This document shows, one piece after another, positions 2,621-30,338 of a DNA stretch of 30,338 nt. The stretch is from Paraspadella gotoi (Eukaryota; Animalia; Chaetognatha). How positions within the stretch are numbered: position 1 is the first letter of the stretch; each line of letters begins with the position of its first letter. The notes under the pieces were generated by a model that was not told the origin of the DNA, did no database searches, and saw only the letters and a program-made list of their open reading frames with translations. The position numbers and the translations under genes are program-made. The DNA lies in assembly GCA_051294375.1 (NCBI GenBank), contig JBJCIZ010000374.1, positions 2,760-33,097 of the forward strand, written 5' to 3'.

Positions 2621-3010
2621 TGTAACGGATTGAGAGAGAGAGGGAGTTCCACAAGGGGGGACGGGGATAAAAGGAGGAGGGCGGGAAGCCATCCGTGAGG
2701 CGATTCTCCGAGAGTCGCCTTTTCCGCGAATCGCCTTTTTCCGCGAACTGTGAAGTTCGGAAAATAGAGAGAGGGAGAGAGACAGGGAAATAGAAGGAGG
2801 AGAAGATATATAAATTATAAGTCAAGGAGGAAAAGTAGAGAGAGACGTGAGAAATAAACTAGTAAAAAATTTTTAATGTTTTCACCTACTTGTAATAAAA
2901 AAAATAGAATCAAATAAACTCAAAACTACCTTCTTCTTTTTAAAACTTTCACGCTAAAGCCAAACGGTTCACGCCGAGCTAGCAAGTTGTTTGTAGCGTT
3001 AGATGCTACA
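2621..3010 (+). repeat. 5' LTR of the Gypsy element
   Basis: TGTAAC...GCTACA termini, TATA-like TATATAAA at ~2807, several AATAAA, and the CA end 4 nt before the PBS. The 5' boundary is inferred because there is no second copy. Confidence 0.7.
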
Positions 3011-3014
3011 AAAT

Positions 3015-3031
3015 TGGCGACCTTGCCAGGA
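3015..3031 (+). promoter_or_regulatory. Primer-binding site, tRNA-Arg type
   Basis: TGGCGACCTTGCCAGGA is complementary to a tRNA 3' end UCCUGGCAAGGUCG-CCA, close to metazoan tRNA-Arg(ACG). tRNA-Arg priming is known for 412/mdg1-group elements. Confidence 0.75.
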
Positions 3032-3033
3032 TA

Positions 3034-3537
3034 GTGGCGAACGCAACTCGCACTCTGGCTCCTGAGGAGACCAGCCTTCTCTACGCTTCCGTCATCAATT
3101 CCATCCTCGTTCTTTTGGAGATTTTTCTGGCGGGTCTGCTAATTCGATATGGCAGAAGGGTCGCCAGAGCCCCCAGTCCCTGGGGAGTCGCCTTTGTTGA
3201 GGCACCTGACATTGGAACCACACCAGTCCCCGCTGCCGGGAATCCATCAACTCCTATCAACCCAACCACGCCCACAGGAGCGGATAGTGAGAGAGCGGAG
3301 CCCATCATCCCAAGCTTCTCCACTCCCCGACGTCGTTCCCCACCACCCGAGCATTGCCTCACCATCCGAAGATCAAGGGGAACTTGTCCGCAGCCTTACC
3401 AGGCTTTCACTGTTAGTCGGAGACTTGGTTACGCGTCAGGAGAGCTTCAGCCAACAAATGGGGGTGGTGATGGAAGAACTCAACAACAACAATCGATCGG
3501 AGGTGAGCGAGGAGGTAGTGGTGGAGGAGCTGGTTGA
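3034..3537 (+). CDS. Single-pass transmembrane ORF upstream of and overlapping gag (GTG start)
   Basis: 14-aa N-terminus with NAT sequon, hydrophobic LLYASVINSILVLLEIFLAGLLI, basic RYGRRVAR, then a Pro/Thr-rich tail. Confidence 0.55.
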   Translation: MANATRTLAPEETSLLYASVINSILVLLEIFLAGLLIRYGRRVARAPSPWGVAFVEAPDIGTTPVPAAGNPSTPINPTTPTGADSERAEPIIPSFSTPRRRSPPPEHCLTIRRSRGTCPQPYQAFTVSRRLGYASGELQPTNGGGDGRTQQQQSIGGERGGSGGGAG

Positions 3538-3940
3538 TGAAGTGGACATGCCTGCGCCGGCGAGCAATCCGGCTGGGGCCGTCGCAGAGAGTGAGGAAAG
3601 AGCAGCTGGAGGAGCGCCGGTAGCCAAGGTAGCATCGGGGCAGCCGGTGGCTGCTGTGGAGGTTCCGGTCACCGCGGGAGGGAGCAGCGCAACCCTTCGT
3701 CTCACTGCGCCGGTGAAACCTGACTTTCCTCGTTATGCTGTTGGAGATTCCATTCGCTCCTTCTCGGCAGCGTTTGAGGGTAAAACGGGAAAACACCAAC
3801 CATTCAAACCACTTTGTGGGATGGAAAAGAAAAGTGGATTCGTCAAAAAGAAGATGGGCAAGAAGGGAGGGAACTTCAAAGGAAAGGAGAACATCCCTCC
3901 AAGGATGACAAATAATCACCAATCTCCGCCATCTGTTTAG
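3149..3940 (+). pseudogene. gag: Gag, internally deleted
   Basis: Lies between PBS and protease. A helical segment and the capsid-start-like DFPRYAVGDSIRSFSAAFE are followed abruptly (~3780) by a basic C-terminal part, so most of the capsid is missing. Confidence 0.65.
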
Positions 3941-4047
3941 GCAGAGAGGACTTGGGCGGGTCGACGGAAGATCTGCCCACTGGAGGTGGCGAGGAGAACG
4001 CGACTTCCGGATGTAGGGATCAACGTGGCGAGAGACTGTAGGAGGAG

Positions 4048-6498
4048 GTGACTGGCATTCGTTCGTCAACGGGATCGGTCGTGGAGGAGCCCATTACCAG
4101 ACATCAACCGGGTCACGATGTCAATCGATTGGCGCCCTCGACGCTGGAAGAAACTGTCCAAGGAATCTCTTTCACCTCGTGCCCAGACGAAGCCCAAACC
4201 GACTCCGAGGGATCTCGAATGTCTTCTCCAACTGTTTGTACAAAGGATTCCGGTGAGGGGAATGGGGAAACAATATATTTAGTAAAACCCGATATTCCCG
4301 GTCCATATCTGCCTATATCTTTTGGTAGTAAAAACTTGGACCCTGTGCATGTTATGTTGGATACGGGGAGTAATGTCAATATCGTTTCTATAAATATATT
4401 AGAAAAATCAGGGTTTCTGGTAAAACTATCACCAAGCCATTTAAATTTGGTAGGGATAGGGGGAGGTGGTTTAAATCTCCTTGGGGAGACCTCTTGTTTC
4501 ATAAACAATTATTCACAAAAAATTAGATTTCATGTTGTAAAGGAATTCGGTTTATGCATATTGGGTCTAACGGGTATGAAACGTTTTAAAATGCAAATTA
4601 ATCTTAATGTGGGTTTGGTCGTGTGCAATAATATGGCTATAAAATATAAAACAAATAATATCCAAATGGCTGAAACGGCAAGGATTCACGCTGTGACGAC
4701 GCGATCTGAGTGTAATCTCAAGTTAGAAGGGAAAGAGATGATAACTTACCTAAAGCTCACCGAAGGAGTCCAGGGTGATATTTGGAAGATTGACTGCGGA
4801 TTCGCCTGTAGGCGATATGGAATCATTATTTCCCGAGCAGTAATCAAAAGACAGGAATCAGGGATGGTACCTGTGGTCATAAAAAATTGGTATACACAAC
4901 CAATAAAATTATATCGAAACTGCACTATGGGAGTAGCTTCCCATAGTGAGATCATAATGGACCCGAGTGATGAAAAACCTTAGATCGATCTTAAGCCAGA
5001 TCCTGAGGATGGTGGGAATTGAAGTTAGCCCAGATGACCATCCTGTGGATAAGATCGACCCGAGCCATTTGAAAGGTAAACAAAAGGAGCATTGAGGCTC
5101 TGCTCAAGAGAAAATATAAAGCGGTATCAAGAGGAGAATGGGATTTAGGAAAACACATTTGTAGAGCATCACATTGAAATAGATAGACCAAACCAGGTCA
5201 TGAGGCTATTGTCGACCCTCCTAGACGTTACCCTTTAGAAAAACAAAAAGCCATCCGAGAGCATATTGAAAAACTTAGAACAATATAATTGAGGCATGTA
5301 AGAGTAGCCATTGTGCTTTTCCCATCTTGGCGAGCAAGCGGAAAAAGGATGGCACATTGGAAAAGAATGCTCGTATGGCTATCGATTATAGGAAATTAAA
5401 TAGCTATTCAATTCCCGTGTCCGCTTTAATACCAAATATGGCGGACGTTATCATGAGTGTTTCAGGGAATGGAAACCGTTGGTTTTCATCAATAGATCTT
5501 ACAAGTGCATTCTTTAATGTGGTTCTGGATGAGGCAAGTAGGCCATATACGACTTTCCAATCGCCAAATGGGGAGACATAGCAGTTTCTGAGATGTCCCT
5601 TTGGATTGATTAGTTCGCCAAGCACTTTTGCTTTGTTGGCAGCAAAGGTTCTGGCTGGAATTTCGTGGCAAAGTGCCTTGGCTTACCTTGACGTTATCAT
5701 TATCTTTTCGTCATCTTTTGAAGACCACTTGGAGCATGTTGAAGAGGTCCTGTGCCGCCTGGAATTGGCGGGTCTAAAGGCTAAGCCCTCAAAAATGACC
5801 TTGTTCAAAAACTCAATCCATATATTGGGTCATGAGGTCAGCCCCGAAGGGGTCAGGGCCGATGAGACAAAATTAATTGCCGTTAAGCACTGGCCAGTAC
5901 CAAAAACTGTTAAGCAGGTACAATCTTTTGTGGCCTTTGCCAATTTCTATTGGAGGTTTGTGCCACGGTTTTTGGGCATTACAAAGCCTTTGTATAGGCT
6001 CTCAGAGAAAGATGTTCCATTTGAATGGAATGAAAATTATCAACAGGCTTTTGAGGAGTTGAAAAGGTTGTTGTGCGCAGACACTTGTCTGGCGCCGCCT
6101 GACTTTGAAAAAGAATTCCATTTGTCCATAGATTGGTCAAATGTGGCTGTAGGATATGTATTGAGTCAGAAGTGTGATCGCACGGGAAAAATAAGACCGA
6201 TACTCTATGGGTCACAAGCCCATAAGGGAGTTCAGACTGATCCTAAAAGGGAAAGGAGTATTGATTCCTCCTATTTGGGAGAATATAAGGCTCTCCTCAC
6301 GGCTCTATCAGGATGTAAGGCATACCTTCTAGCTAAAGGGAACTTCACTGTCCATACCGACTGCGGTAGCCTTCTATATTTACTCCATTCTTGGTATTTA
6401 TTCTGCGATGTCTGGGGAAGATTGCCAAATTCGGAAAAGATTGGAAAATTGTCTGTTCAGGAATCCGAAATGTTGCTGCAGATGCAATGTCGCGCATC
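4048..6498 (+). pseudogene. pol: Pol: protease, reverse transcriptase, RNase H (disrupted)
   Basis: PR: MLDTGS, ILG. RT: PPRRYP, RMAIDYRKLN, IDLTSAF, CPFGL, YLDV (YLDD mutated), LGH. RH: IDWSNVAVGYVL, TVHTDC, NVAADAMSR (after a frameshift). Stop at 5579-5581 and several frameshifts. Confidence 0.95.
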
Positions 6499-6780
6499 GT
6501 GGAGGCGTGGGTTCGAATCCCACCGCTGCCACCAAGTGGAGGATAGTATTTTTAGTAGAAAATAATTCGACGCCAAGGTGAAATTGAAGGAGAATTTATT
6601 TAGTGTAACATCGAAGGGAAAGAAATAATAATAATGAGCGCGAGAATAAAATAACAATGACTTTTATATGAACTACTTTGTTTATCAAAGTAGGAATGTA
6701 AACGAGAATGGAATTTTAGGCCGAGAGAAATATTATTTACATTTTTGTAATTTACTGAATTCTTTCTCCCAATCTTCACT
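6499..6780 (-). mobile_element. Inserted LTR-like unit (6535-6780, AGT..ACT ends) plus tRNA-Leu-complementary tail, 5-bp TSD GCATC
   Basis: GCATC at 6494-6498 and 6781-6785; removing the insert restores ADAMSRIRLDVPPTG. Termini AGTGGAG/CTTCACT. Minus-strand AATAAA at ~6595-6600. Confidence 0.85.
6501..6534 (+). pseudogene. 3' fragment of mature tRNA-Leu including CCA
   Basis: GGAGGCGTGGGTTCGAATCCCACCGCTGCCA+CCA matches the T arm and acceptor 3' strand of metazoan tRNA-Leu(AAG/TAG type). Confidence 0.9.
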
Positions 6781-8282
6781 GCATCAGGTTAGATGTTCCA
6801 CCCACAGGGACTTGGGAGGAGATCTGTAGCAACAAAAAGAAAATCAGTGAGAGAATCGCGCCGGTAATCACAAGGAGCGCTTGGGAAGCTGAGAAGGCTG
6901 ACCCTGCAGCCGTCCTGAACCCTGATCAAGTTCAGGAGCCAGCAAAATTGACAGATTGGCGCAATTGGCAGGAAACGGACGAAGACCTGCTGGTATTGAA
7001 AAAATGGCTAACGGAGGGAGCTCCGGGAAGAGCCCAAGCCCGATGGAATAGTCCGGCTTTGAGATCATATTATGCATCGTTACCACAGTTTAGTCTGCAT
7101 GACGGAGTCATTGTCAGAAAATGGACTGACGCCATGGACCCAGATAAAGAGCTCAATTTACCAGTGGTGCCAGAGGATCGTGTGGTTGAATTATTATTCA
7201 ATGCTCATGAACTCCAAGGGCATCCAGGGGTCACTAGGATGCGGGATGTAATCAAGGATAAGTACTATTGGTACTCACGCGATGTCACCATAAATGAATA
7301 TGTGATGACATGCAACATTTGTGCCAGGAAAGCAAACCTCAGGGCACCCTTAGTCCAGGACAAAGCTTCGTTTTTCAATGAACGAGTAGCTATAGATATT
7401 AAGGTAATTGTATTGAACTAAGTTCGGAGAAGTGGCGTCTTTGAATTCTAACTGACTGGACTAATTCTGCGCATTGAAGACCAAATGGAATCGGGTATAA
7501 AATGGCGCAGAAGAGACGATGGCGCCGGTCCAGACGCCCTGGAGATGCTGACGACAAAGTCTCAGTAGACGACGTCGGCTAAGGCCGAAATGACGACTGT
7601 CTACGAAGCCCAGGACTTGACAAATGTTGATGTAAGTCTGAAGAAGAGTTTAAGTTAGAAGTCCTGGGCAAGAATAACAAAACATTTAGTACAAACTCAG
7701 CAAATATATAAATTTAAAGTGTCTTTCTTACTTGTTTCTGAAGCCAATAATAAACAAAATAGAGATGCTTCTCTTCATAGAAAAGTCCACCAAACCAGCG
7801 ATCACACAAAAATAAGATTCCGAGATATCTGAATAAGAGAATTTCTATGCTCTGAAAAGAACTAAAAACCCAGTGACAACTTTGAGATCTGAAGATGCCA
7901 CGTGGCCAAATTCGATAAGAATCTTAATCGAAATCCATCGAAATCACGGGCACCAATCAGAATCAGCTGTACACTGCCTTCGGAATTCTGTACTTAGGTA
8001 TAAACAAAAGAAAGAGCCTAAAGATGTCGTGTCGATCGCTAGAATGGAAGCATTTTCGATGTCAGTAATAAAGAGCAAAAGAGCAACGGGGAAAAGGTAG
8101 AGAAGCTGGATTTCCTCGTAATATTAGAGATAGTTATTTCGTAACAGTAATGACAAAACCATCGAGACATGGTTTTGTGGCAATCTTATTGATAGTAGAT
8201 TATTTCACTAGATTTGTGTCACTGACAAATCTAAAATCACAGACCGCAGAGGAAGTGTGGACGGCCTACATGGACAACTGGT
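6781..8282 (+). pseudogene. pol: Integrase N-terminal part, copy 1 (split by solo LTR, truncated)
   Basis: HHCC motif AHELQGHPG..CNIC; ERVAIDIK | VMTKPSRHGFVAILLIVDYFTRF; ends at MDNW. Confidence 0.9.
7409..8146. mobile_element. Solo LTR (738 bp) of another family, TSD GTAAT
   Basis: TGTATTGAA...TTCGTAACA termini; GTAAT at 7404-7408 and 8147-8151; removal restores the integrase frame. Confidence 0.9.
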
Positions 8283-9032: not shown

Positions 9033-9737
9033 TCTTTGGCCAACTAGTATTTGAACTGGAAGAGAAAACTGGAGGGAAAGTAATCAAAACGAACTATCAA
9101 AGCTATGAAAAAACTATAGAAAAAACTAAAGAGCAACGACAATATCTGTACATCATAAGTACAATCATTAGTTAGAGAACTACTGAACGTTTTTTTGTTT
9201 ATAAGTTTCAGTTCATTTTAATTTATTCTATATTTAAAGTTAAATTCTTTGCCCAACAGAGTAAAATTGACAAAAAAAGTCATTCTAAGCATGTTATTGA
9301 TAAACAGGACATAAATTTTATAACATAAGAAATCGCTAAAAATGTTTCAGTCAATGGCGTATCTGAATTCTCGTAACATTTTGTAAATTCTAAGTTTCTT
9401 TGCACAGTTCGTCGAAAAAAGTCGAAAAAAGCATGTTCTTAACTATCGTGAAAAATTATTTTATATCATATGAAATCCAAGTTAATGCTTTATTTAATGG
9501 TGTAAATGAATTCAATTGATACTTTTGAGGAGAAATTAATTTAGAATTTTTTAAATATAAAATACTTTTTACTGAAAATGAATTGGATGATCGTCAAAAA
9601 AGGTTTTTTTAAGTAAAGATTAAATTAATTTTAGAAAATTAGGATATAATAAACGTCTAGTAGATGGCTATAACTTATAGCAAGACATATAGTATAAATA
9701 TATATAGTATAAATAGAAGAGAAAAATTTGAAGATGT

Positions 9738-9968
9738 GAAGAGACAGTAATTAATGTTATGTGTTAGTGACAGAACCGTTCAATATAAGCAGTCCCTGAG
9801 CTTCGGATCAGGCTGTAACACCAATGTTACAGCGGGTTAAGCGCCCCGTCCTCCTTAACTGCTAGGCGGCCACCGGGCTACAACCCCGGACCTTTGGGTT
9901 GGGCGGCGAATGACTTGCCTCCGGCACCAATGCCGCTGAATGAACGGTTGGTGGATTTTAGTCCACCA
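9738..9968 (-). mobile_element. tRNA-derived SINE family 1, copy A
   Basis: Inverted homolog of 10638-10863; A-box-like TGGTGCCGGAGG, B-box-like GGTTGTAGCCC. Confidence 0.7.
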
Positions 9969-10322
9969 TAAAGTTCATTATGAGAAATGGTAAGCACTTT
10001 TTTTTTTGGTGTCACTAGCGAATGGACACATGGAAATCACAACAAGAAAACGTAAATATACTTATTCCAAAAAAAGTGCAATTAATTTAATAGATAGTTC
10101 AAGATAATAGAAGCAAGCTCACTAAATTTGTTTTAAAATATTTATAAAATGTAATACAAAAAATAAAATATATAATGACGAAATATATAATATAACTTGC
10201 CTAACTATATTAACTATGCCCTAAAAAGCTAAAAAAATTACATGGATCACAAACAACGCAATATTCAGCGTTTACAACGAAAATGAATTTTTTTAAAAGT
10301 TGAACAATGGTAAAAGCGCGAC

Positions 10323-10935
10323 GGCGATCCGGAGTTGAATTCGCTCTGGAGGCTATGGAAAAACGAAGAGAAAGAAGAGGAAAAAATAAAGTTTGTTTCT
10401 TTACGGAAAAAAAAATTTAAGACCGTAACAACCAATGATATTAAAAACATTTTAAGCTTTACGAGCTAAGGATTTCTTTTTTAATTCTTTAAAAAATTTA
10501 ATTATAATATTTTTTTTATTACCTTTGATAGATATTTATAAAATAAGTTTTTATTTGTGATAACCACGATTATTTAATAATTGGATATGTTTTTGGTTCT
10601 TGTTTTTGATCCTTCATCAACCAGTTTAATAGTTTTATAGTGGACTAAAATCCACCATTCATCAGAGGCCATTGGTGCCGGAGGCAAGTCATTCGCCTCC
10701 AACTCAAAGGTCCGGGGTTCTAGCCGGTGGTCGTCTGGCATGTTAAGAGGCACGGGGCGCTTAACCCGCCCTGTAACATGGTGTTACAGCTTGATCGAAG
10801 CTCAGGGACTGCTTATATTGAACAGTTCTGTCACTAACATATATCAATAATTACTGTTTCTTCAGTTTTAATAAATATTTGGATACTAACTTTGAGAGAT
10901 AGAGAGAGAGCAATTTTAACCTTGATATCTCTCAC
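10323..10935 (-). repeat. Interspersed repeat with Penelope pLTR-like segment, interrupted by a SINE
   Basis: Inverted homolog of 12352-12755; degenerate hammerhead-like motif at 10579-10627. Confidence 0.65.
10638..10863 (+). mobile_element. tRNA-derived SINE family 1, copy B, TSD AGTTTTA
   Basis: AGTTTTA at 10631-10637 and 10864-10870; the empty site is visible in the paralog at ~12418-12433; A and B boxes present. Confidence 0.8.
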
Positions 10936-11214
10936 TCTTTCCGAATTATTAAATGACCCTTGTAATCATAAATAAAATTCTGTTACTTAAATAAATATTA
11001 TTATTATATTTTTTATAAATTTATTAATATTTAAATATTCTTTTTTGAATATTAAATTATTATATACTTAAGAAAAAGGGTCATTCAATTCAACTTCAAA
11101 ATAGGCCAAAATGGAGTACAAATTCAGAAAGCAGAGCTCCTGGCGATTCCGAAAATGTATTCACTTTAAACATTTGATATCGGTTTTAATTTATAATATA
11201 AAAAAAAGAAACCT

Positions 11215-11490
11215 ATCTGAAGAGTTGCAGGTCAACGAAAAGGCCATCCATCTGATATTTTTTATGAATTTTTTATTACTGAATTAGAAAAATATAATAG
11301 AGAGACATTTTTAAATTCAACTTGTATCCTGGAAAATGAAATGTTTTTAAACTTTAACCCTGAATTCTTTCTAACTGGATCGCGTTTATCAAAATGTCTC
11401 TCTATTACATTTTTACAAATGTTTTTAAGATTGCTAATCAAATTTTTAATTCAATATTATTGCAGTCGTTTAGGCTGCAACTCTTCAAAT
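11215..11490. repeat. Degenerate foldback/MITE-like inverted repeat
   Basis: TGAAGAGTTGCAG pairs with CTGCAACTCTTCA; nested AATAGAGAGACATTTT pairs with AAAATGTCTCTCTATT. Confidence 0.5.
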
Positions 11491-11877
11491 TCAGTGTAGA
11501 TTCATTGTAGCTCGAATTTCTTACCATCTATTTAACTGAAGATTTTGTTCATGACTGGAAAACCAACGAGTAACGAGATTAATTGTTTAATTCTCCCCTT
11601 CTAAACTAACCCATACCGTGTTTTAACTTCTTACCTAGAATTTTTTAACAAACAGATTGAAAACAAATCTTTAAAAAATATGCTTACCCATTTAACTTAA
11701 CAGTTTTGTTATTTACCCATTTAAAAAAAATGATTAAAAACAGAATGTTTACATATAAATAAAAACTTATTTTTTTATTACTGATGATTATAATGTATTT
11801 CTCGATATATTAGCTCTAATACATCAATGATTACGTATTGGTTATGCTGAATGACCTTTCCTCTTAACCAAAAAATT

Positions 11878-12352
11878 AATTTTAAATTTAACTCTAATTT
11901 ACTCTTAACTTACCCTTAACCCTAACTTACCCTTAACCCTAACTTACCCTTAACCCTACCTTACCCTTAACTTATTTTTACCTTAATTTATTTTTTTAAT
12001 TAACTTACACTTATTCTTAATTTATTCTTTACCATAATTTATTGTAACCTTAATTTTTACCCAAATATATATTGGTTGTACCAATTTTATATAACAAAAA
12101 TAAAAAATATTTAAAAAAATTATGATATCTGAATTCCTTTATTTTTCCCGAAACATTATCCTCTTCCATTCCATTTTCGTTCTTTTTTCATTAATTCTTT
12201 AAGAAAAACCTTGCTCTTCGTTTTCCCATAGGCCTCCAGAGGGCATTGATCTCCAGGAATGCCCTATTCGGCATCAATGTAAGTAAGTTAGGGTTAGAGT
12301 TAAGTTTGGGTTAGGGGTAAGTTAGGGGAAATTAGAGTTAAATTTAAAATTT
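11878..12352. repeat. Inverted arms with a telomere-like 17-bp minisatellite (AACTTACCCTTAACCCT)
   Basis: AATTTTAAATTTAACTCTAATTT vs AAATTAGAGTTAAATTTAAAATT; CCCTAA-type units on the left, TTAGGG-type units on the right. Confidence 0.65.
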
Positions 12353-12755
12353 GGAGAGAGAAAGATATCAAGGTTAAAATTGCCTCTCTCTCTATCTCTC
12401 AAAATTAGTATCCAAATATTTATTAAAACTATTAAAACTGGCTGATGAAGGTTCAAAAAACAATAACCAAAACATATCGAATTATTAAATGATCGTAGTT
12501 ATCACAAATAAAAATTATATTTGTAAATATCTATCAAAAGCAATATAAAAAAATTACAATTATTAATATTTAAAAAACATTTTTTAAAGAATTAAAAAGA
12601 AATCCTTAGCTCGTGAAACTTAAAAAAGTTTTTAATATCATTGTTGTTACGATCTTAAATTTTCTTTTCTGTAAAGAAACGAACTTTTATTTTTTCCTTA
12701 CTTTCTCTTCGTTTTCCCATAAGCTCCAGAGCGTATTCAACTCCGGGATCGCCAT
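12352..12755 (+). repeat. Interspersed repeat with Penelope pLTR-like segment, uninterrupted copy
   Basis: (CT)n tract followed by CTGATGAAGGTTC..AACCAAAACATATC at ~12436-12483. Confidence 0.65.
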
Positions 12756-14179: not shown

Positions 14180-15839
14180 AATAATAATGAGCGCGAGAAT
14201 AAATAACAATGACTTTTAATGAACTACTTTGTTTATCAAAGTAGGAATGTAAACGAGAATGGAATTTTAGGCCGAGAGAAATATTATTTACATTTTTGTA
14301 ATTTACTGAATTCTTTCTCCCAATCTTCACTGCATCAGGTTAGATGTTCCACCCACAGGGACTTGGGAGGAGATCTGTAGCAACAAAAAGAAAATCAGTG
14401 AGAGAATCGCGCCGGTAATCACAAGGAGCGCTTGGGAAGCTGAGAAGGCTGACCCTGCAGCCGTCCTGAACCCTGATCAAGTTCAGGAGCCAGCAAAATT
14501 GACAGATTGGCGCAATTGGCAGGAAACGGACGAAGACCTGCTGGTATTGAAAAAATGGCTAACGGAGGGAGCTCCGGGAAGAGCCCAAGCCCGATTGGAA
14601 TAGTCCGGCTTTGAGATCATATTATGCATCGTTACCACAGTTTAGTCTGCATGACGGAGTCATTGTCAGAAAATGGACTGACGCCATGGACCCAGATAAA
14701 GAGCTCAATTTACCAGTGGTGCCAGAGGATCGTGTGGTTGAATTATTATTCAATGCTCATGAACTCCAAGGGCATCCAGGGGTCACTAGGATGCGGGATG
14801 TAATCAAGGATAAGTACTATTGGTACTCACGCGATGTCACCATAAATGAATATGTGATGACATGCAACATTTGTGCCAGGAAAGCAAACCTCAGGGCACC
14901 CTTAGTCCAGGACAAAGCTTCGTTTTTCAATGAACGAGTAGCTATAGATATTAAGGTAATTGTATTGAACTAAGTTCGGAGAAGTGGCGTCTTTGAATTC
15001 TAACTGACTGGACTAATTCTGCGCATTGAAGACCAAATGGAATCGGTATAAAATGGCGCAGAAGAGACGATGGCGCCGGTCCAGACGCCCTGGAGATGCT
15101 GACGACAAAGTCTCAGTAGTCGACGTCGGCTAAGGCCGAAATGACGACTGTCTACGAAGCCCAGGACTTGACAAATGTTGATGTAAGTCTGAAGAAGAGT
15201 CTTTAAGTTAGAAGTCCTGGGCAAGGAATAACAAAACATTTAGTACAAACTCAGCAAATATATATAAATTTAAAGTGTCTTTCTTACTTGTTTCTGAAGC
15301 CAATAATAAACAAAATAGAGATGCTTCTCTTCATAGAAAAGTCCACCAAACCAGCGATCACACAAAAATAAGATTCCGAGATATCTGAATAGAGAATTTC
15401 TATGCTCTGAAAAGAACTAAAAACCCAGTGACAACTTTGAGATCTGAAGATGCCACGTGGCCAGAATTCGATAAGAATCTTAATCGAAATCCATCGAAAT
15501 CACGGGCACCAATCAGAATCAGCTGTACACTGCCTTCGGAATTCTGTACTTAGGTATAAACAAAAGAAAGAGCCTAAAGATGTCGTGTCGATCGCTAGAA
15601 TGGGAAGCATTTTCGATGTCAGTAATAAAGAGCAAAAGAGCAACGGGGAAAAGGTAGAGAAGCTGGATTTCCTCGTAATATTAGAGATAGTTATTTCGTA
15701 ACAGTAATGACAAAACCATCGAGACATGGTTTTGTGGCAATCTTATTGATAGTAGATTATTTCACTAGATTTGTGTCACTGACAAATCTAAAATCACAGA
15801 CCGCAGAGGAAGTGTGGACGGCCTACATGGACAACTGGT
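14180..15839 (+). repeat. Near-identical direct copy of 6627-8282
   Basis: Starts inside the AGT..ACT LTR, includes the solo LTR; about ten differences, mostly 1-2-nt indels. Confidence 0.95.
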
Positions 15840-16570
15840 GTCATTTTTTGGCGCCAGTTTGCAATCCACACGGATTTCAGTGTGCAGTTTGCCGCTCAAA
15901 AGGCTACAGACCTTTTAAATTAATGNNNNNNNNNNNNNNNNNNNNNNNNNGGAATTCACAAGACCCATACTGTCTCTTTCCATCCTCAGAGTGATGGTTT
16001 AGCAGAAAGACAGATCCGAACCCTAAATAACACCTTATCTAAAATCCTGATGGAGGTTGAGGCCGAGCAGGAGAAATTAGGTGTGAAAGAGCAAACTGAT
16101 TGGGGAGATTTGACCCAGATGATTCAGTTTGCCATGAATGCCTTACCCTGTAAATTCACAGGGTTTAGTCCGTTTCGAGTCTTGACCGGACAAGGTATGA
16201 ATGTCCCGTTGTCATTGACCTTTCCATTGGAAGACTGACGACAGGTGCGTGAAGTTACCTAGGGCAATTAGCATTAAGCCCAATGACGTCCGATCGTTTA
16301 GCGCCCAATTCTACAAAGAGCCATTTGTCATCACTAGGAAACTGAGTGATGTCAACTATGTCATCTGCCCAGATGGCGAGTGACGGATTGGCGGAACATG
16401 GCCGAAAGGAATGCCGAGTGGTCCACGCCAATCAGTTCAAGTTGATCGAGGATTCCATCGGAATCCCTACCCGAGAGGTTGAGAAGCGAGATCAAAACAA
16501 AAGACCATTCCGAGAGAGAAAAGTCCCTGTTCATTTACAAGACTATGATCTAACTAATGAACGAAATTAA
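14333..16570 (+). pseudogene. pol: Integrase, copy 2, through to the C-terminus
   Basis: HHCC; AID | VDYFTRF; IHTD; FHPQSDGLAER; TGFSPF; GPY/F-like EPFVI..VNY..VVHANQFK; terminal RPFRERKVPVHLQDY. Frameshifts and an N gap at 15926-15950. Confidence 0.9.
14961..15703. mobile_element. Solo LTR, duplicate of 7409-8146
   Basis: Same termini; TSD GTAAT at 14956-14960 and 15704-15708. Confidence 0.9.
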
Positions 16571-16799
16571 CAGGATTTAGTATGAATGATTGCTGACTAG
16601 CCAATGAATAAAATAAGGTAAGAAGTTTGGAACAAAGTCAAATAGATATAAAAATACCAGGGGTAAAAACAAAAAACAATAAAAGGCAATGGAAAAAATT
16701 TAAGTTTGCCTAAAACTAACATAATAAACTGACTAATGTAACAGGAATGAATAATAAAATAATAATAATAAAAACTCGAAATGTTAAACAAATAAATTT

Positions 16800-19628
16800 C
16801 AAAGAGATGAGTAACGCTCCGGCGGAACTCCGGGGCGGGCGGTGGCGGCGACGGGTGGAGGTCTACCAGGACTTCGATGGTTCCACCCCCTCCTAAGGAG
16901 TCGTCCTCGCGGGAATCAACGGCCGCTGGGATCATTGAGATCTCGTGCGACTAAAAGCCGCTAAGATGACGAAAGAGAAGTGGCGTCGAGTGGAGCGTCT
17001 CAATGGCCGCTCGCGCTCGGCGCCGACAGCAGCGGCGGAGAAGGACGACGAGGAGGATGAGGAGTGCTGTTGAGGCCGCCCCCGCGGTGAAACAAATCAT
17101 TTTCTGGAAAAAAGATAAAATCAGTTTTAATTAAATAAAATAATAAAATAAAATAATAATAGACAAATAGAAATATTCAAAGAACTGTTCCAGGCTCTTA
17201 CCGAAAGAGATTCGGAGTGTCGGCGGGGATGGCGGTGTACCATGACGTGCGGCCACGGTGATCGGGAGAGCGGAGGGGGCGTGACGCCCGACGCTCTCCG
17301 GCGTTTCCGATGTCGATGTGTTTAGGGGGAGCGATGAATGGGTCATCATCGTCGTTGCCTCCGTCCGCTTCGTCTCCTTTGTGGTTTCCTTCGTCGTCCT
17401 CGTCGTTACGGTCGTCGTCGTCGAGACGGTCGTCGTCGTCGTCGTCGAGACGGTCGTCGTCGGGGTAGTGAGGGGGTCGACTAAGATGATCTGCAAGTCG
17501 TAACCCCATCCCCTCGCTGAACGGAAAAATAAAAAGAAAAAAAAAATAAAGGATCGGCGGAATAAAATAAGCTATGGTAATAGATTAACAAATGAGTAAG
17601 GACAAATTTTACCTTTCCTGTTTGTTGTCAGGGAGGAGACAAATTCTCCGGGGCCCCGTCAAGGAGTTGTAAAACTATGTCGTCGAGATCCCCAGGAGAA
17701 GAGGTTGATTCCCCTTCTAGGAGAAAAGGGAGATTCGCCACCAGGGTGTCAATTTCCCGAAAGGTGGGAGATGGTGGCAAGGTCAGGTGGAGGGGAGCGA
17801 TTATGGAAGCCTCCGCGGAAGCAGGTTGAGAGAAATCCTCCACCATCTCTTTGATCCAGGGGTCGGCCGCAGACGAACATGGAGTGGGTTCGGTGTCGTC
17901 GACCCAATGGACGAGGGGGGTGGCCAAAGGAAGAGACAGTCAGAAAAAATGGCCTCCGAAGAGGGGAGACTTTCTGGCGGATGAGGGGCCGGGAAAATGA
18001 TCTCCGGAACGGAAGTTTCGGGGTCTGGAGTGGACGAAGAGGACGGTTCCTGAAGGATGATATAGATGCGAGAGTTGGAAGCGTCCAGAGTCGTGGAGGG
18101 AGGCGGAACCGCCGCTTCCGAATGGAAAGTTAGAGATGGCTCTGGATGCGCAGGAGAGGAAGTGATTTCACTCTCCTGCCAAACAATCTCTGGGGCGGCG
18201 CGACGGCGTTTCGGGGGATTTTGGAAAAACGTCTCTTTAGGGGACGGAGCTCGGCGGCGGCGACAACCTCGCCCACCAGAGCCCGTGGAGACAGGTGAGG
18301 AAGTCCGAGTTGAGGTCCGAGTCGGGCGAGTCGGACCTCAGATCCCTTTCCAATTGGGGCTGATAAACGAAGGGCCGAGGACAGACCAGGGGATGGGTGG
18401 CGGGCATTTCCATTCCCGGTCCGAAGAAAATCCCTGGGAGGAAATGGGGATTAACAGTCTTGGACACCCAGCTCCTGTTTTGAACCAAGGTTCGAGCCGG
18501 GGCGCATGAGGCCCCTCGATGTAGAAGAAACTGGCGCCGGTTGGCCACTGGGGGCGTGGTGGGGCGCGAGATGGGGTCCGGGATGGCATGAGGCGGTGGA
18601 TGGTACCTATGAGTAAAAGGAAAGAAATGTGAAAAAAACTATACTAGATAAAAAAGTAAGAGAATTAGAGAATCAGCAAGAAAACATAAATGAGAATTCC
18701 AAAATAACCTACTGGTAAGGAGGATCCTCCGAGTGTAAAATAGTGCTGGGTTCCACTATCTCGAAGGTGCCACGTAGGGGGAAGGTGGAACGTTGTGCGG
18801 CAAAAGGGAGCGGAGAGTCATGACGGTACCCCGAGATCCAAGGGGAACCGCCGAATATCCACTGTTCCCATCGGACTTGGCGCTCAGCCTCCGACGGGAA
18901 CTGACGACGAGGATGAAGGAGCCGGACAACTAAGGCTTCGCACCAGGAGTGTTGGGAGCGCCGGGGAAGCACTCCCACGTAGTTCCCAGGGACTCTGATG
19001 CAACCCCGCAGATCCTCCGTGGCCCCGACAGGGGGATCCCGGTCAACTCGCCACCCCATGTGGGGAAAACGGGCAGCTGCGTCGACGGCCGGGTAGCTAA
19101 GCAAGCAAAAGGGAAATCGAGATAAAGGATTGGATTCAAAGCAAAATATAAATTTAATTTAAATTCAGGACAAAATATGTTTGAACTGCTGACAATTGAA
19201 CTGCTGACAACTGAACTGCTGACAACAGTCTATTATTTTGTTTTAAACAAAATATTAAGAGATGCTTACCAGTTCCAAAACGGTGTCGTGCTGAGGTGTA
19301 CAGAACCCTGGGAGGATCTCCGTACTCCAAGGTGTGCATTTCCTCTGACAAATAGAGGCGGATCGGTGCACTGGCAGGTCTGTCTCTCTCGGGCGGCGAA
19401 GATGCCGCGCCGCCTGACGCAGCTCGAGAGTCAGAACCTCCGTGTGAAGCCGAAGAGTGAAGGGAGCCAAGAGAGTGATGGGAGTGGGCCGGACGAAGCT
19501 TGAAAAGATGAGAGATAGGACCCAGCGGAGTTGGTTGGGGTCTTGAATCTCGACGGGCGTTGGTGAGAGACCGTTGGGAAGAAGTGTCGAGGGCCCGGAT
19601 AGCCAAGCCACCAACGAAAATGTATTCC
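16800..19628 (-). pseudogene. Antisense multi-exon cassette (5 GC-rich exons, 4 GT-AG introns)
   Basis: Minus-strand introns 19269-19097 (GTAAGC..TTAG), 18712-18607 (GTAGGT..ATAG), 17612-17517 (GTAAAA..TCAG), 17201-17104 (GTAAGA..CCAG), each T-rich with a pyrimidine tract; further acceptor TTTTAG at 19630-19629. Confidence 0.7.
19182..19226. repeat. 3 x 15-bp tandem repeat TGAACTGCTGACAAY
   Basis: Seen directly, inside intron 19097-19269. Confidence 0.9.
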
Positions 19629-21140
19629 CTAAAAGCCCCGCACGACGAACTGAAAGAGCAGAAGGAAAATGCGGGAACATTTAAAAAAGGAAAAAACCAA
19701 AAGAACATCGAAAAGGAGATGAGAAATAAAATAAGCACCAAAGTAACCCAGTATTGTATAAATACAAGTAAAAAACTGTAAATAAAACCGAATTCCTCAA
19801 AATAAATGTATGTACGATTATAACCCGAGTGGGTAATCGAAATTATTCCTATTTTAGATATAAAACATATTATCTAGTTTTTGGTTTTGGTTTTGGTTTT
19901 TGGTGTGACATAATAATCCCTTTATTTAGAATGATTTTGAATGAAGGAGAGTTTTCTCCAAAAAGGATTTCTCGCGCATTTCGTCTTTTAATCAATGTTT
20001 TACCGTGCTTATTATTATAGTAATATCCAAACATTGCCAAGTTTCTAAACTGGTATGGAAATTATTAAATATCCTAATCCTTATGTTGTATTTGATAACA
20101 CGTTCTTATGACATATATTGTAATACTGTAATGGATACGTATAAATGTACTGTACTTACATGAGTAGGGTCCCGAAAAATGCCAGGAGAAAAGCCATGGT
20201 TGGGGAGATATAGGAGAAAATCTTGCTTAAAAAAAATTCAACCTTTTTCTAATAGAGATTTCCGTTCGAATCTGACTGCCCAACTTTACAAACGAGCCTG
20301 CAATAAATTCCGGTAGAAAACAGTTGTAAAAACACCCGATTCCGACAGCTTTGCATCTCAAGAGCTTGTTCCTTTCTCCTTTTGGCATTTGATAAAGATT
20401 TTACTATCAAACAAGCCAGGGGAAATGGACTACTCGTCTCCTGAGGATTTTCATACCTCATTTTTACTATAGAAATGAAAGGGAAATTTCACTTTTTTAC
20501 AAACGGGATTAGGGTATGTTAGCATTATAAATGGTACTTAGAATTGTGAGATTCCAAAAGCCTTGTGTCCCTAGCGCTCATTCTATTTTTCTTTTTATTA
20601 TTGACCAATTTTTAGTCGGATCTGCTTATCAGACAGATCCCGACTCTATAACTCACTTTTTCGGTCCGTCGGTCCGCCCCCTCAATATTGTCGGGCACAC
20701 ACTTATATCATGTCAGAACATCGAATTATGATAAATTATGCAAAAAAATGATGTCCGTCCGTCCGTCTGTCCGTCCGTCCGTCCGTCGTCCGTCCGTCCG
20801 TCCGTCCCACCTTAGCAAAAAACTCCAATTACCGTGATTGGATGGATGGATTGGTATGAAATTTTGTGTGTGGGTAGGAAACTGTGTGATTGAAGATGGA
20901 TATGAAGTTTCGAGGGAATCGTGCGAGTGGAAATTGGTTAAATGGAAAAAACAAAAAAATATATTTCTCTATTTGACGCCAATTGCTCATGAGTGGATAG
21001 TGCAATTGACTTGAATTTTGTATGATGGTAGGAAAGTGTGATCTGAGCCGGATATAAAGTTTCGATGGAATCGAGCGAGTGGAATGAGTTAAAATGGAAA
21101 AAACAAAAGTCATATTTACTTGAAGTATTTTTACTTAAAT

Positions 21141-21974: not shown

Positions 21975-22266
21975 TTGACCAAATTATGCTAATGACCAAT
22001 TATGCCAGTTGACCAATTCTGCAGTTAATCAGTTTTGCAAGTTGACCAAATTATGCCTGTTGTACCAATTAGGCTAGTTGATAAAATTATGCCGTAAACC
22101 AAATTATGCCGGTTGACCAAATTATCTTAATTGATCAAATTATGTCAGTTGACCAAAATTATGTCAGTTGACCAAATTATGTCAGTAGACCAAATTATGT
22201 CAGTTAACCAAATTAATGTCAGTTGACCAAATTATGCAAGTTGATTAAATTATGCAAGTTGACCAA
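21975..22266 (+). repeat. 18-bp minisatellite within the HINE
   Basis: GTTGACCAAATTATG(T/C)CA units. Confidence 0.9.
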
Positions 22267-26399: not shown

Positions 26400-28930
26400 A
26401 ATCTTCGTTTGCGGATCGCCTTCGTTCAAGCGTTTCGTCGAAGTTTCTCTAATCCTCGGCGAATACTTCGGGTTCACCGAGAAGAAGTACCACCAGCGTC
26501 GGTCTCTGGGTGCCGAACGAATCGACGTTTCCATCATCGAAGGAACTAGCTATTCCTTCGACGGACGTAAGGGTCTAGCGGCGCCTTTGTGCATGACTTG
26601 CGACTAGGACCTCGACTAGCGACGAGATACGACGATCGTCTACGGGTATTACTTTCGTGGATAAATTCCGTCGCTCCTTCTGATACATTGCAGTGAGATT
26701 GAAGTTCGGTCTCGATTCGTTTTATTTCTTCAAACTTTGCGCCGCGGCTGCAATACGTCGTCGTGAAACTTTCTCGATTTCTACGCCGCTACGATCATCA
26801 GCGGCGACGAATAGGATTGTGAAGAAATAAGCGCACCAGTGATCATCAGCGTCGTCGAAGCTCGAGTGTCGAAATCCTTCTTTGGAATTCCCCTTTCAGC
26901 GTTTCTTGTTGATGTTACTGTTTCCTTTATAAGACGATATCGGGCTCGCTTAAGTTCAGTAAAAGAGAAATATCGATCACTTCGCGACGTTCGACAAACA
27001 ATTTTCCAGACCCCAAATTACCTTTCCGAATATCAGACTAAGCCTTCTTCAAAGCGGACATGGCTCATATCCCTGCGAGCCATACCCTACAGGAATGCCA
27101 CGTCTTCCTTCACGGCCTCAATGTCGAACAAGCGGTCGAGGCGCATGCGGTTTCGTTTGATCGCGCTAAGACCACTCCGACGCAGGAGAATATCGCGGAA
27201 GCCAATGCGGATAGGCACATTGTGAAAGCGACTTACGAACGCATTTGTTCTGCGATATCCGGAGGCAGTTGGAATGATAAGGCGATGGAAGTTTTGTCGG
27301 ACTTCCTCAATCGCCTCCACAACATCCTTGGGCAGCGCCGCTTACTTGATTCGCGGGCTAATTCAATGTCCACGCGTGCCTCATCGGTAGAAAGCATAGC
27401 ATCGACTGGACGCTCCGTTTCCGCCACAGCACGGATAACGCCGATGCCGGAGCTACCGGAGATTTCCGAGAAAAGGGAACCAGTTCTTCGGCTGTAAACG
27501 ATCCCGACGATGGCTTCGTGGCGTCCATCCCGGCCGTTCTCGCCTCCTCCGCCATCTCCAGAAGATGAAGTAGATGGAACACTGTCCGTCTTGTTCCCGT
27601 CTGACGTCAAGCCGGCATCAACAGAGGAACAGCGCACTGAGGGAAATAACAACGTCCCAACATTATCTTTCGCCAGAACCACTGGAGGATCCTTTGGGTC
27701 CGGAGAGTGAGACTGTCGCTGTAACCGGAACGACGAGAGCTCATAGCTTACGCTCGGACATCAACGCCGCCAACGATATGGACGATGAAGCATCTCACGT
27801 CGGCGTCAAAGGAAGTGCACCAGATTTTTCCGCCATCTTTTCGACTCTTCATGGAGTTTCGGATCAACTGAGAGAGATGCGTGATGAGACAGAGGACGAT
27901 ATACATAACGTCACCGCTGCGAATCGCGCATTACAGACGAGGACGGAAACAAACGAGAGGTCGGCAGAACGAGTTTTTGGCGAAGCCGAGAAACCTTTTT
28001 CGTCGCCTGACGCCCGCAACATCGACTCGAACGGCAGACTGGGTCGAGGCTCAGACAGCGTCCCCCCGTTTGGAGCCCTCTCTCCATCAGCTTGTAGCCG
28101 GCCTTCAACTACCAACGACTCCACCGCCAGCTTACGACATAACGATTCATCATCGTGAATCGTCGGCTCGTCTCAACGAAGTCGGCACGCGTGCGTCAGC
28201 AGCAGCAGCAGCAGATCAGCACGCGGGTTCATCGGAAGCGGATCCTCGATGAGGTGAGGCGGCGGGCGTGGGAGCGGGAGCCGATGACGCTCCGCCCATC
28301 GCCAATCCTCGATTGCATCCACCAGCAACTTTGGAGTCAATACGCGACGCTTTAAGGGAACTTTGTGAACAAGGACAGCATCGTGAGGCGGCGGGAGAAC
28401 GTGAGGCGGCGGGAGAAGGAGGAGCGGTCACTTCTCCGCCTCCCCCGCCAGTCGTTTCACACGGCGCTACTACCGCTGCGGCGATGAACGCCGAAGCGCC
28501 GGCTTTTACCCTCGAAGCGTGACGCCTCATTCGGCGGCGTCACACGCTTCACACGTTTCCGGCATCCGCGGCGCCATCTTCGATCCGGCGCCGTCTGAAA
28601 CGCCTTCGACCGCTCAGCTGCGATGGCGACGGGCTTTTTTGGAATTCAAGCCCAGACTCTCGCCTTCCAAATGCTTCAGCAGCAGCGCCCAAAGAACAAA
28701 GTCGACGAAAATCTCAGCATTGGACTTTGAGCGTCAACTTCGAGACTTTCAAGTGAGCGTCTGTGCGTTGGAGGGCGCCACGATCCCATGAAGTTGAAGG
28801 AGCTACCCACTGGTTCGACGGTCTTTCCAAGCGATCCGTCTGCACGCGTCTCCTTTCTTCGAGCGCTTTAACCGTCCCCATCGCGAAATAGTAACACGAT
28901 CGTTTATTTAGGGTATTGGCTCGCTCCCCT
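26400..28930 (+). mobile_element. Decayed retroelement 5' region: GC-rich leader plus frameshifted gag/ORF1-like sequence from ATG 27060
   Basis: Chain of overlapping + ORFs (27060-28900): helical N-terminus, S/P/A-rich linker, coiled-coil-like DQLREMRDETEDDI, ending ..AIRLHASPFF..EIVTRSFIR. No LTR, PBS or RT seen. Confidence 0.45.
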
Positions 28931-29531
28931 AGTTGACAAATTACGCCCCAGTTGACAAATTTGCCAGTTGAGCAAATTATGCCACTTGACGCAAATTATG
29001 CTGTTGAGCAAATTATGTTGGTTGACCAAAATTAATGTCAATTGACCAAAATGTATGTCAGTTGCCATATATGCCAGTTGGCCATATTATGCGGTTAGTC
29101 CATTTTGCCAGGTTGACCAAAATTGTAGCCAATTGACAAATACTGCCAGTTGACGCAAATTATCCAGTTGACAAAAATTATGCCAGTTGACCAAATAATG
29201 CAACTTGATTAAATTATGCAGTTGACCAAATTATGCAACTTGATTAAATTATGCAATGTTGACCAAATTATGCAAATTGACCAAATATGCAAATTTCCAA
29301 ATTATGCAAAATTTCCAAATTATGCAAGTTAGTATTGCGCAGCTACTGGCCAGAGTTATTTATTGATTTATGATTTTTTCATAGATTTATTAAGAAGTCT
29401 GTTATTTGTTATGTTACAATTTATGATTTTTTCGAATTGAAAATCAGAAAATACTACCGTGATTAATCATGTCGATTAGCTTATTATTGTTTAATTATCG
29501 TAGCAGATCTGACATTGTTTAGTCAAACTTG
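28930..29531 (+). mobile_element. 3' part of another HINE copy
   Basis: 18-bp minisatellite at 28930-29330; 3' end GCAGATCTGACATTGTTTAGTCAAACTTG matches 23926-23953. Confidence 0.75.
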
Positions 29532-29677
29532 TTGTTCAATAATCTTGCCTCGTTTTTCTCTTTTTCAGTCAATTTTTTTACTGGTCTATTTTTGGACTGT
29601 ATTCTATCCTGATTTTTAACTTTGATATTTAGAGGCAAATTGGTTTTTGTTTACAACGAAATTTTTATTTTCAGAGA

Positions 29678-29720
29678 AAACGTACATGTTTCGGCTTTAA
29701 TGCAAGCCACATCAGCGTTA
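29678..29720 (-). ncRNA. Minimal hammerhead ribozyme, second copy (A9 missing or substituted)
   Basis: AACG-CTGATG-T-GGCTT(GCATTA)AAGCC-GAAA-CATG-TA-CGTT. Confidence 0.7.
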
Positions 29721-29968
29721 AATGATTTATGAATTTTTGAACAGTTTTTTGTGTGAAAAGAAAGGGGAGGGAGAGAGAGAGACAGGGAAGGTTCCAACAC
29801 AACGTTGAGAAGAAACTAAATCTCTATCTTCCTCATTCTTAACTGTCATCACCACTTGACACATTATTCTTTCTCAACTCTGTGTTGGAAACTTTGCCCT
29901 GTCTCTCTCTGCTTCTCTCCCCCTTCTTTCACACAAAAAACTGTCCAAAAATATTCCTAAATTATATT

Positions 29969-30012
29969 AAGCGCTGATGAAGGTTGCATTCAAAGCCGAA
30001 ACATGTACGTTT
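29969..30012 (+). ncRNA. Minimal type-I hammerhead ribozyme
   Basis: AAGCG-CTGATGA-A-GGTT(GCATTCAA)AGCC-GAAA-CATG-TA-CGTTT: stem I AAGCG/CGTTT, palindromic stem III ACATGT, GUA cleavage triplet. Confidence 0.8.
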
Positions 30013-30338
30013 TCTCTGAATAAAAAAAATTAAAAAAATGTTGTAAAACGGCCAACCACAACTCTTCGCGCCTTCACAATCCGCTCTCACAACGACACAA
30101 CCACGCACACACGCGCTTACTTCCTCACACTTCTGACTCATCTGAATATATATTATAAACACAAAAATGTTTCGTTCAGAAAAACCTTGTATTTACAAGT
30201 TATTGATTCATTTTTGACTTTTATAAATACTAAACATTTTACAAATATAAGTTTTATTTGGCAACTCATGTTAAACAGTTTGATAGGGGCAAAAATCAAG
30301 ACACAGTGGAGGACGGAATTTTTAGTGAAAAGAATTCG

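Follow-up and report, generated by a model that had tools for sequence, protein, structure and literature searches.

An antisense, intron-shaped, multi-copy cassette behind pol of a decayed Ty3/Gypsy copy in the chaetognath Paraspadella gotoi: a candidate accessory-gene module

We analysed a stretch of 30,338 nucleotides (nt) from the chaetognath Paraspadella gotoi (assembly GCA_051294375.1, contig JBJCIZ010000374.1, positions 2,760 to 33,097 of the forward strand), hereafter called the window; it is AT-rich eukaryotic DNA with a decayed copy of a Ty3/Gypsy retrotransposon spread across it. Behind the pol gene of this copy, on the opposite strand, lies a cassette of five exon-like blocks separated by four intron-shaped ones. 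The splice anatomy of the cassette exceeds chance, the cassette occurs in multiple copies, and its exon 2 is protein code kept by selection, of no known family. Such evidence leads us to propose that the cassette is a multi-copy accessory-gene module of the Gypsy family, likely transcribed from a 3' long terminal repeat (LTR) missing here and likely spliced. Taken as a whole, we regard this proposal as evenly poised, while the family-level position of the cassette between pol and the 3' LTR seems to us quite probable.

Splice anatomy and coding capacity of the cassette

Four blocks on the minus strand behind the pol stop at 16570 run from GT to AG, all with T-rich 3' ends: intron 1 (19269-19097, 173 nt, GC 0.30), intron 2 (18712-18607, 106 nt, GC 0.26), intron 3 (17612-17517, 96 nt, GC 0.27) and intron 4 (17201-17104, 98 nt, GC 0.20). 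The exons have a GC of 0.57-0.62. Applied to the whole window, a fixed filter, demanding GT-AG borders, a length of 60-200 nt, an AT-rich interior and GC-rich flanks, with splice weights that were not fitted, returned exactly these four blocks on the minus strand and none on the plus strand. When bases were shuffled within blocks, 4937 of 5000 runs gave no such block, 62 gave one, a single run gave two, and none gave three or more. A first-pass annotation of this DNA had already pointed to four antisense intron-shaped blocks behind the pol stop, and the filter bears it out. The same annotation had closed the cassette at 19628; this border has to be moved outwards, since the minus strand has a further strong acceptor, the fifth, at 19650. 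It belongs to a T-rich minus-strand block (19650..19850) over which relatives add depth to about 19850 and which is likely a fifth intron with its donor side lost. Neither a polypurine tract (PPT) nor an LTR was found after this block in the window.

It is important to note that the underlying sequence is well verified. The stretch is present in nine sequencing runs from three studies, none of them recorded as RNA, and near-identical contigs from the three studies tile 16538-20067 without gaps and almost letter for letter. Record 3 of run X1 (16538-18243) and record 27 of run X7 (16538-18434), for example, show one difference each and no gaps. Because these contigs confirm the sequence, the cassette truly adjoins the end of pol at this locus, and the stops in exon 3 are genomic breaks; assembly error as their cause is ruled out. 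An X7 contig also crosses introns 3 and 4 unspliced, but X7 is probably DNA and hence silent on expression. A GC-rich intron inside exon 3 (18276-18142), proposed by eye, was dropped as unlike the other four.

Contigs were aligned at 88% identity over 15960-20300 in four runs and at 80% over 18690-19868 in two. Relatives of the cassette, which make it multi-copy, align over its exons and hardly over its introns. At 80%, bins in exon 2 reach depths of 58.6-189.4 (X7) and 116.4-302.2 (X5), and the intron-1 core has 13.0 and 21.4, respectively, that is, the locus contig alone without relatives; such summed contig depth does not equal copy number. At 88% in run X4, the bins that contain the four introns range over 227-367. 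Exon 5 bins rise to 816-1025 and the 5' portion of exon 3 to 391-670, and its 3' half does not leave the baseline (226-240). Exon 4 was left out of this comparison because its GTC repeat draws unrelated contigs. Finally, one contig of 240 nt, with 3-4 times the depth of the locus, indicates several near-identical recent copies.

The strongest case for coding is made by exon 2 (18713..19096, minus strand), which has a single open frame of 115 codons from its first ATG at 19059. Twenty-four differences to relatives fall in this exon among the 40 of 124 that were listed; in the open minus frame, 19 of them occupy third positions and 17 leave the amino acid unchanged, the expected silent fraction being 0.29 (p 2e-5). 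The plus-strand frame sharing these third positions contains three stops. From this silent-site excess it follows that exon 2 is protein code under purifying selection between this copy and its relatives. By the listed differences, exon 2 is conserved like the other proteins of the element, as 11 of 13 were silent in the integrase used as a control. Among the indels listed, the one common to most relatives in exon 2 (18817) is one codon long, and at 19070, upstream of the ATG, some relatives differ in length by a number of nucleotides not divisible by three.

Exon 1 (19270..19649, minus strand) behaves differently from exon 2 in having no clear single frame. Two frames are open over 126 codons, a double-open stretch equalled in 34 of 2000 shuffles, and no ATG occurs early. 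Its 12 listed differences include five that are silent in one frame and six others that are silent in the second; 11 of the 12 are thus silent in one frame or the other, with 0.61 expected (p 0.024), which hints, on thin evidence, at dual coding. All four runs show a 69-nt skip in this exon.

Exon 3 (17613..18606, minus strand) has long open segments in two frames, three in all (18605-18240, 18337-17804 and 17939-17631). With four, four and five stops in the three frames, it is broken in this copy. It carries a basic cluster at 18262-18200, which we take to resemble a nuclear localisation signal, and its last segment is acidic (net charge -15) and ends at a stop at 17630. Exon 4 (17202..17516, minus strand) has two open frames, one Asp-rich and one Thr-rich and mucin-like; the former runs from an ATG at 17509 over 102 codons up to the exon end and would encode, if spliced, a peptide of 104 residues. 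In exon 5 (16800..17103, minus strand), the frame starting at ATG 17100 is hydrophobic over 17100-17038 (Kyte-Doolittle 2.44), and the 15 residues that come next include two Cys and six Arg; it stops at 16953 after 49 codons and reopens beyond. The would-be stop of the Asp-rich frame overlaps the exon-5 ATG (17097-17100, minus strand), which could be chance. Overlaps of this kind can serve translational coupling. The T-rich minus-strand block after exon 5 (16571..16800), into which relatives reach only as far as about 16630, represents a 3' untranslated region or a further intron.

No homologue of these products turned up in the collections searched. For the exon-2 protein, no homologue was found in viral and metagenome contigs, a comparison with PDB sequences gave one match at E 1.8, and an Atlas search gave a top score of 0.76. 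Scans of the exon frames against Pfam and PHROGs yielded no significant match, including none to bZIP or TRP28/Transposase_28. Folds predicted from single sequences were unusable, with a pLDDT (predicted local distance difference test) of 34 for exon 2 and 50 for one exon-1 frame, and Foldseek with a single-sequence fold gave no match at E 0.001. We would also like to mention a likeness of exon 2 to dUTPase, spotted by eye and rejected. A 17-sequence profile scored 1.1 bits across 19 residues, a value reached by 2 of 1000 shuffles, and HHalign gave a probability of 3% over 22 columns, reached by 3 of 254 shuffles; exon 2 did come top among 30 frames, but through a single short motif and in a ranking made after the fact.

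Probable linkage of the cassette to the Gypsy family

The element itself is readily placed. Its pol carries RVT_1, RT_RNaseH_2 and Integrase_H2C2 in this order, which is the Ty3/Gypsy arrangement, with a protease match at E 0.025 only. In a tree of 31 reverse transcriptase (RT)/RNase H rows, it clusters with P0001 and P0002 (support 100/99), its nearest pol relatives at 45% in RT/RNase H, known from contigs of 9426 and 7842 nt. The pol C-terminal motif of P0001 and P0002 is similar to that of our element, and both are without a chromodomain annotation.

Several observations favour a link between the cassette and this element. Relatives of the integrase end have depths of 54.6 in X7 (two contigs) and 98.4 in X5 (two contigs), and those of exon 2 have depths of 60.2 in X7 (two contigs) and 134.1 in X5 (three contigs). 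The similar depth in both runs compared suggests that the integrase end and exon 2 travel together. Relatives moreover continue beyond the pol stop, to about 16630. The purine skew (A/G) of the sense strand of the element persists through the cassette (purine 0.60) and ends after it (0.50). Pol terminates normally, and neither a PPT nor an LTR follows it. Since the window contains no PPT and no second LTR, this copy is truncated.

Expression model and competing explanations

Antisense introns survive the reverse transcription of a sense RNA, so a spliced gene may persist in a retrotransposon if it is read from the opposite strand. In our model, antisense transcription would start from the 3' LTR, lost in this copy. 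The minus strand of the remaining LTR holds donor-like sites at 2929, 2889 and 2885 (scores 5-7) and an acceptor-like site at 2748, and from its sequence we infer that it is a candidate antisense leader when placed as a 3' LTR. On the same strand, a frame with its ATG at 2692 remains open as far as the edge of the LTR, a feature shared with the first exon of HBZ. The leader would join the acceptors at 19650, 19097, 17517 or 17104, and the first ATG after each of the last three would start a separate product. Indeed, the first ATG past the acceptor falls in the long frame at an offset of 37 in exon 2, 7 in exon 4 and 3 in exon 5; the chance of such an ATG is 0.042 for exon 4 and 0.027 for exon 5, in a test chosen after seeing them. 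This pattern likely fits one leader with alternative acceptors better than exon skipping. If the linkage to the Gypsy family holds, we lean slightly towards this arrangement of a leader, alternative acceptors and separate products.

The phases of the junctions are less orderly. Among the junctions of long frames, only that of exon 2 with exon 3 is in phase. Exon 2 needs two bases from exon 1, which leaves one or none; exon 3 meets a stop at 17630 in its last long frame, ahead of its donor; and exon 4 leaves two bases or one where the hydrophobic frame of exon 5 needs none. Part of this mismatch reflects the decay of the copy, in which exon 3 has stops in every frame.

The first product, from exons 2 and 3, would combine a novel Trp/Arg-rich domain of 115 residues with a Pro/Ser-rich linker, a basic cluster and an acidic tail, and its frame is broken twice in exon 3 of this copy. 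From motifs and analogy only, we predict a nuclear regulator of element transcription or RNA export. The second, from exon 4, would be the acidic 104-residue peptide, with the Thr-rich frame as an alternative. The third, from exon 5, would be a small single-pass membrane protein: its open reading frame (ORF) has one span, judged from hydropathy (2.44), with at least three Lys or Arg in the next 15 residues (six Arg), and its nearest proteins by features are small single-pass ones (0.87, a lead only). Again from motifs and analogy only, we predict that it anchors or moves particles at the membrane. It is tempting to go further and imagine an antisense unit like that of complex retroviruses in an animal Gypsy element. 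A single leader from the 3' LTR would serve five alternative exons, of which 1 and 4 would be coding in two frames each, and a stop-start overlap would mark the beginning of exon 5. Of the three or four proteins made, one would be a nuclear regulator with a new domain and another a small membrane protein that carries particles from cell to cell in the absence of env. We offer this picture tentatively, as rather unlikely in its entirety.

Exon skipping within the same cassette would make other proteins from it. Exon 1 joined to the Thr-rich frame of exon 4 and to the hydrophobic exon 5 would give a mucin-stalk type I membrane glycoprotein, an antisense env-like product, and exons 1, 2 and 3 would give a second protein. 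The phase of donor 19269 suits the Thr-rich frame, which is 31% Thr and has a weak Mucin match (E 0.23, below the cut-off); exon 5 is similar by features to the single-pass proteins MUC1 and glycophorin C (0.85-0.87, a lead only), and exon 1 retains two open frames with its differences largely silent in one or the other. However, exons 4 and 5 are out of phase in verified sequence, so that an extra break must be assumed, and exon 1 has no signal peptide (hydropathy at most 1.5). The first-pass annotation had argued for skipping from two phase statements, that donor 19269 fits acceptor 17517 and that the junction at donor 18712 is in frame. Its arithmetic is correct; yet exon 4 has two open frames, so two of three phases would fit acceptor 17517 by chance, and neither exon-4 frame continues into the membrane-spanning frame of exon 5. 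Overall, we consider exon skipping improbable. What stands of that annotation is a module that is antisense and intron-shaped, to which we add the selection on exon 2. The module is also multi-copy, a single-copy region having been named there as grounds for refutation, and the annotation was right that the 3' LTR is missing; the weak part is the exon-skipping argument.

A number of observations weigh against the accessory module with its leader and separate products. No contig of a relative bridges integrase and exon 5, the bin 16685-16829 being at single-locus depth in four of four runs, and no 3' LTR is at hand: the window contains neither a second copy of the LTR (2621-3010) nor a PPT, and neither appears in the contig rows listed. 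At the locus, the half with LTR, gag and RT is joined to the half with integrase and cassette only via a duplicate of about 1.65 kb (6627-8282 and 14180-15839, 99.2% identity) across 5.9 kb of other, unrelated DNA; it may be a true duplication or a mis-join. Six sense-strand AATAAA motifs occur in 16607-16791, where genomic RNA must read through, and no AATAAA or ATTAAA was found on the minus strand in 15900-17110. Joints were found at none of the introns in four runs, all of them probably DNA, and no relatives of 17555-18134 (intron 3 and the 3' half of exon 3) at 88%. Exon 1 is without an early ATG or a clear single frame, and exon 2 has a 2-nt gap at 18774 in a low-depth X7 contig. As for functions, the protein searches with exon 2 gave no passing homologue among 10 and 285 candidates, and no homologue or fold stands behind any predicted function. 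To this we add the limit on depth given above, and that the sequence differences to relatives were the best 40 of 118 and 40 of 124, chosen by support.

The missing bridge and the missing 3' LTR would also fit a cassette that arrived behind pol as a separate multi-copy element, be it a DNA transposon with introns or some other mobile gene, and took the place of the 3' LTR. The locus is indeed full of nested insertions (solo-LTR-like, tRNA-like and MITE-like inverted repeats; MITE, miniature inverted-repeat transposable element). However, no terminal inverted repeats of at least 25 nt surround the cassette among the inverted repeats listed (the 25 longest of 33), the Pfam and PHROGs scans gave no transposase or helicase match, relatives of integrase and exon 2 are similar in depth in two runs, and relatives pass the pol stop. 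We give this explanation a low probability. Much less likely still is a small host gene family lying by chance beside a truncated Gypsy copy. Ordinary spliceosomal introns and purifying selection are typical of host genes, but the protein searches run gave no homologue, the 240-nt contig speaks for several recent near-identical copies, the GC is that of gag (0.56) and not of the flanks (0.32-0.34), and exon 3 is broken. Chance composition or assembly error, with nothing coded or spliced, could be argued from the stops in all frames of exon 3 and from the lack of an RNA run among the runs found, but it is countered by the shuffle test, the contigs of three studies and the silent-site excess, is refuted for exon 2 as code and has almost no probability left.

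Locus context and known antisense units

The rest of the Gypsy copy lies on the plus strand, upstream of the cassette. Its 5' LTR (2621..3010, TG..CA) is followed after 4 nt by a stretch resembling a primer binding site (3015..3032), which begins with TGG and presumably matches the end of an Arg tRNA. Next come a GC-rich gag-like ORF (3143..3940, GC 0.56) without a significant Pfam match and the protease (weak), RT and RNase H parts of pol, split over several frames (4042..6565). The integrase is present twice: the first copy (6759..8282) holds the zinc finger and the start of the core, according to Pfam, and the second (14180..16570) is broken and runs to the pol stop at 16568-16570, interrupted at 14961-15703. 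This interruption is a 743-nt TG..CA insert in the integrase core with a 5-nt direct repeat on both sides and a copy near 7410-8150, and it is likely a solo LTR from another family. Between RNase H and integrase, a tRNA-like piece (6455-6534; weak Rfam match to the tmRNA model, 20 bits) is probably an insertion of the SINE (short interspersed nuclear element) type. Nested, MITE-like inverted-repeat arms of 69-176 nt are found at 9737-12746, and an 18-nt satellite recurs in three spots (297-513, 21975-22266 and 28931-29330). The GC-rich block 26400-28900, with several frames of 100-190 codons and no significant Pfam match in the four frames scanned, is likely the first ORF of another mobile element. 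At 29659-30031 there is a hairpin-shaped element with 40-nt inverted ends, which plant microRNA models match weakly, below threshold.

Finally, we would like to set the cassette beside known systems, as far as the accessible parts of the papers cited here describe them. In plant Ty3/Gypsy elements, antisense ORFs called aORF-3R lie between pol and the 3' LTR, as in maize Grande (gene23), rice RIRE2, Silene Retand and bean PvRetro13 (PMC7264820, PMC11963269). GENE23 of Grande is nuclear, and a nuclear regulatory role has been proposed (PMC7264820). Our cassette, antisense to gag-pol and downstream of pol, shares with aORF-3R the place behind pol and the orientation, and it is likewise, in exon 2, conserved like the element proteins and without a homologue outside elements, with a nuclear role proposed (PMC7264820). 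Unlike aORF-3R, it is divided into five exons by short introns, four or five in number, and would give up to four products, of which one is predicted to span the membrane; the word 'intron' does not occur in the accessible text of the Retand paper (PMC7264820). An antisense accessory gene behind pol is also known as brtn in Boty-like Gypsy elements of Botrytis (PMC8365987). Unlike in the brtn elements, the cassette here measures 3 kb, and the nearest pol relatives have no chromodomain annotation.

A model for the mechanism is provided by HBZ of HTLV-1 and APH-2 of HTLV-2, where an antisense transcript from R/U5 of the 3' LTR is spliced and encodes a nuclear regulator (PMC3185765). The donor-like sites on the minus strand of our LTR might suit such a scheme. 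Unlike HBZ, the cassette has no bZIP match in the exon frames scanned and has several acceptors and predicted products rather than one, and it sits in a Gypsy element, not in a deltaretrovirus.

In animals, the parallels found are one short antisense ORF, a non-coding antisense RNA and other accessory genes that the text at hand does not describe as antisense. AS-SLE-1 of the mussel Steamer-like element, like ours an LTR element of an animal, is an antisense ORF of 67 residues for which 3' LTR drive is proposed; it is one short ORF, unlike the multi-exon cassette, and 'intron' is absent from the accessible text of its paper (PMC10974842). CERV of Cer1 in C. elegans is an accessory nuclear export factor of an animal LTR element, also spliced; unlike the cassette, it comes from spliced Cer1 mRNA, and the accessible part of its description mentions no antisense unit (PMC10309623). 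The antisense RNA of micropia is described, in the portion of the source at hand, as non-coding. In MDG1-group Gypsy elements, all 105 of 105 sORF2 candidates are forward and have 63-107 residues, an ectodomain of about 30 residues and an N-myristoylation motif (10.1101/2025.03.14.642691). The exon-5 ORF resembles sORF2 and FAST proteins in being small and single-pass with a polybasic patch directly after the span (10.1101/2025.03.14.642691). It departs from their definition (60-210 residues, a 10-50-residue ectodomain with MGxxxS/T, forward orientation) with its 49 codons, antisense orientation, almost no ectodomain and no such motif. If the exon-5 membrane protein is real, it would offer another way, encoded on the other strand, to fulfil the role of sORF2 in insect elements.

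In the literature we found no animal Gypsy element with an antisense cassette of several exons, a weak sign of novelty given that subscription journals and Repbase entries were outside the search. Pipelines for transposable elements seek sense or six-frame ORFs, and a gene split into antisense exons of 300 nt would escape them. The function of antisense ORFs in LTR elements has been posed as an open question, and a search for antisense spliced transcripts has been urged, in the accessible text of PMC7264820. The cassette, under selection, multi-exon and belonging to a family with recent near-identical copies, brings a system that can be tested beyond plants and fungi, and its protein domain has no match in any of the collections searched. 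Overall, we might conclude that an antisense accessory layout known from plant and fungal Gypsy elements likely has a multi-exon animal case here. With exon 2 as selected code and membership in the Gypsy family likely, the analogies drawn above suggest that the cassette likely works like aORF-3R or an HBZ-type unit.

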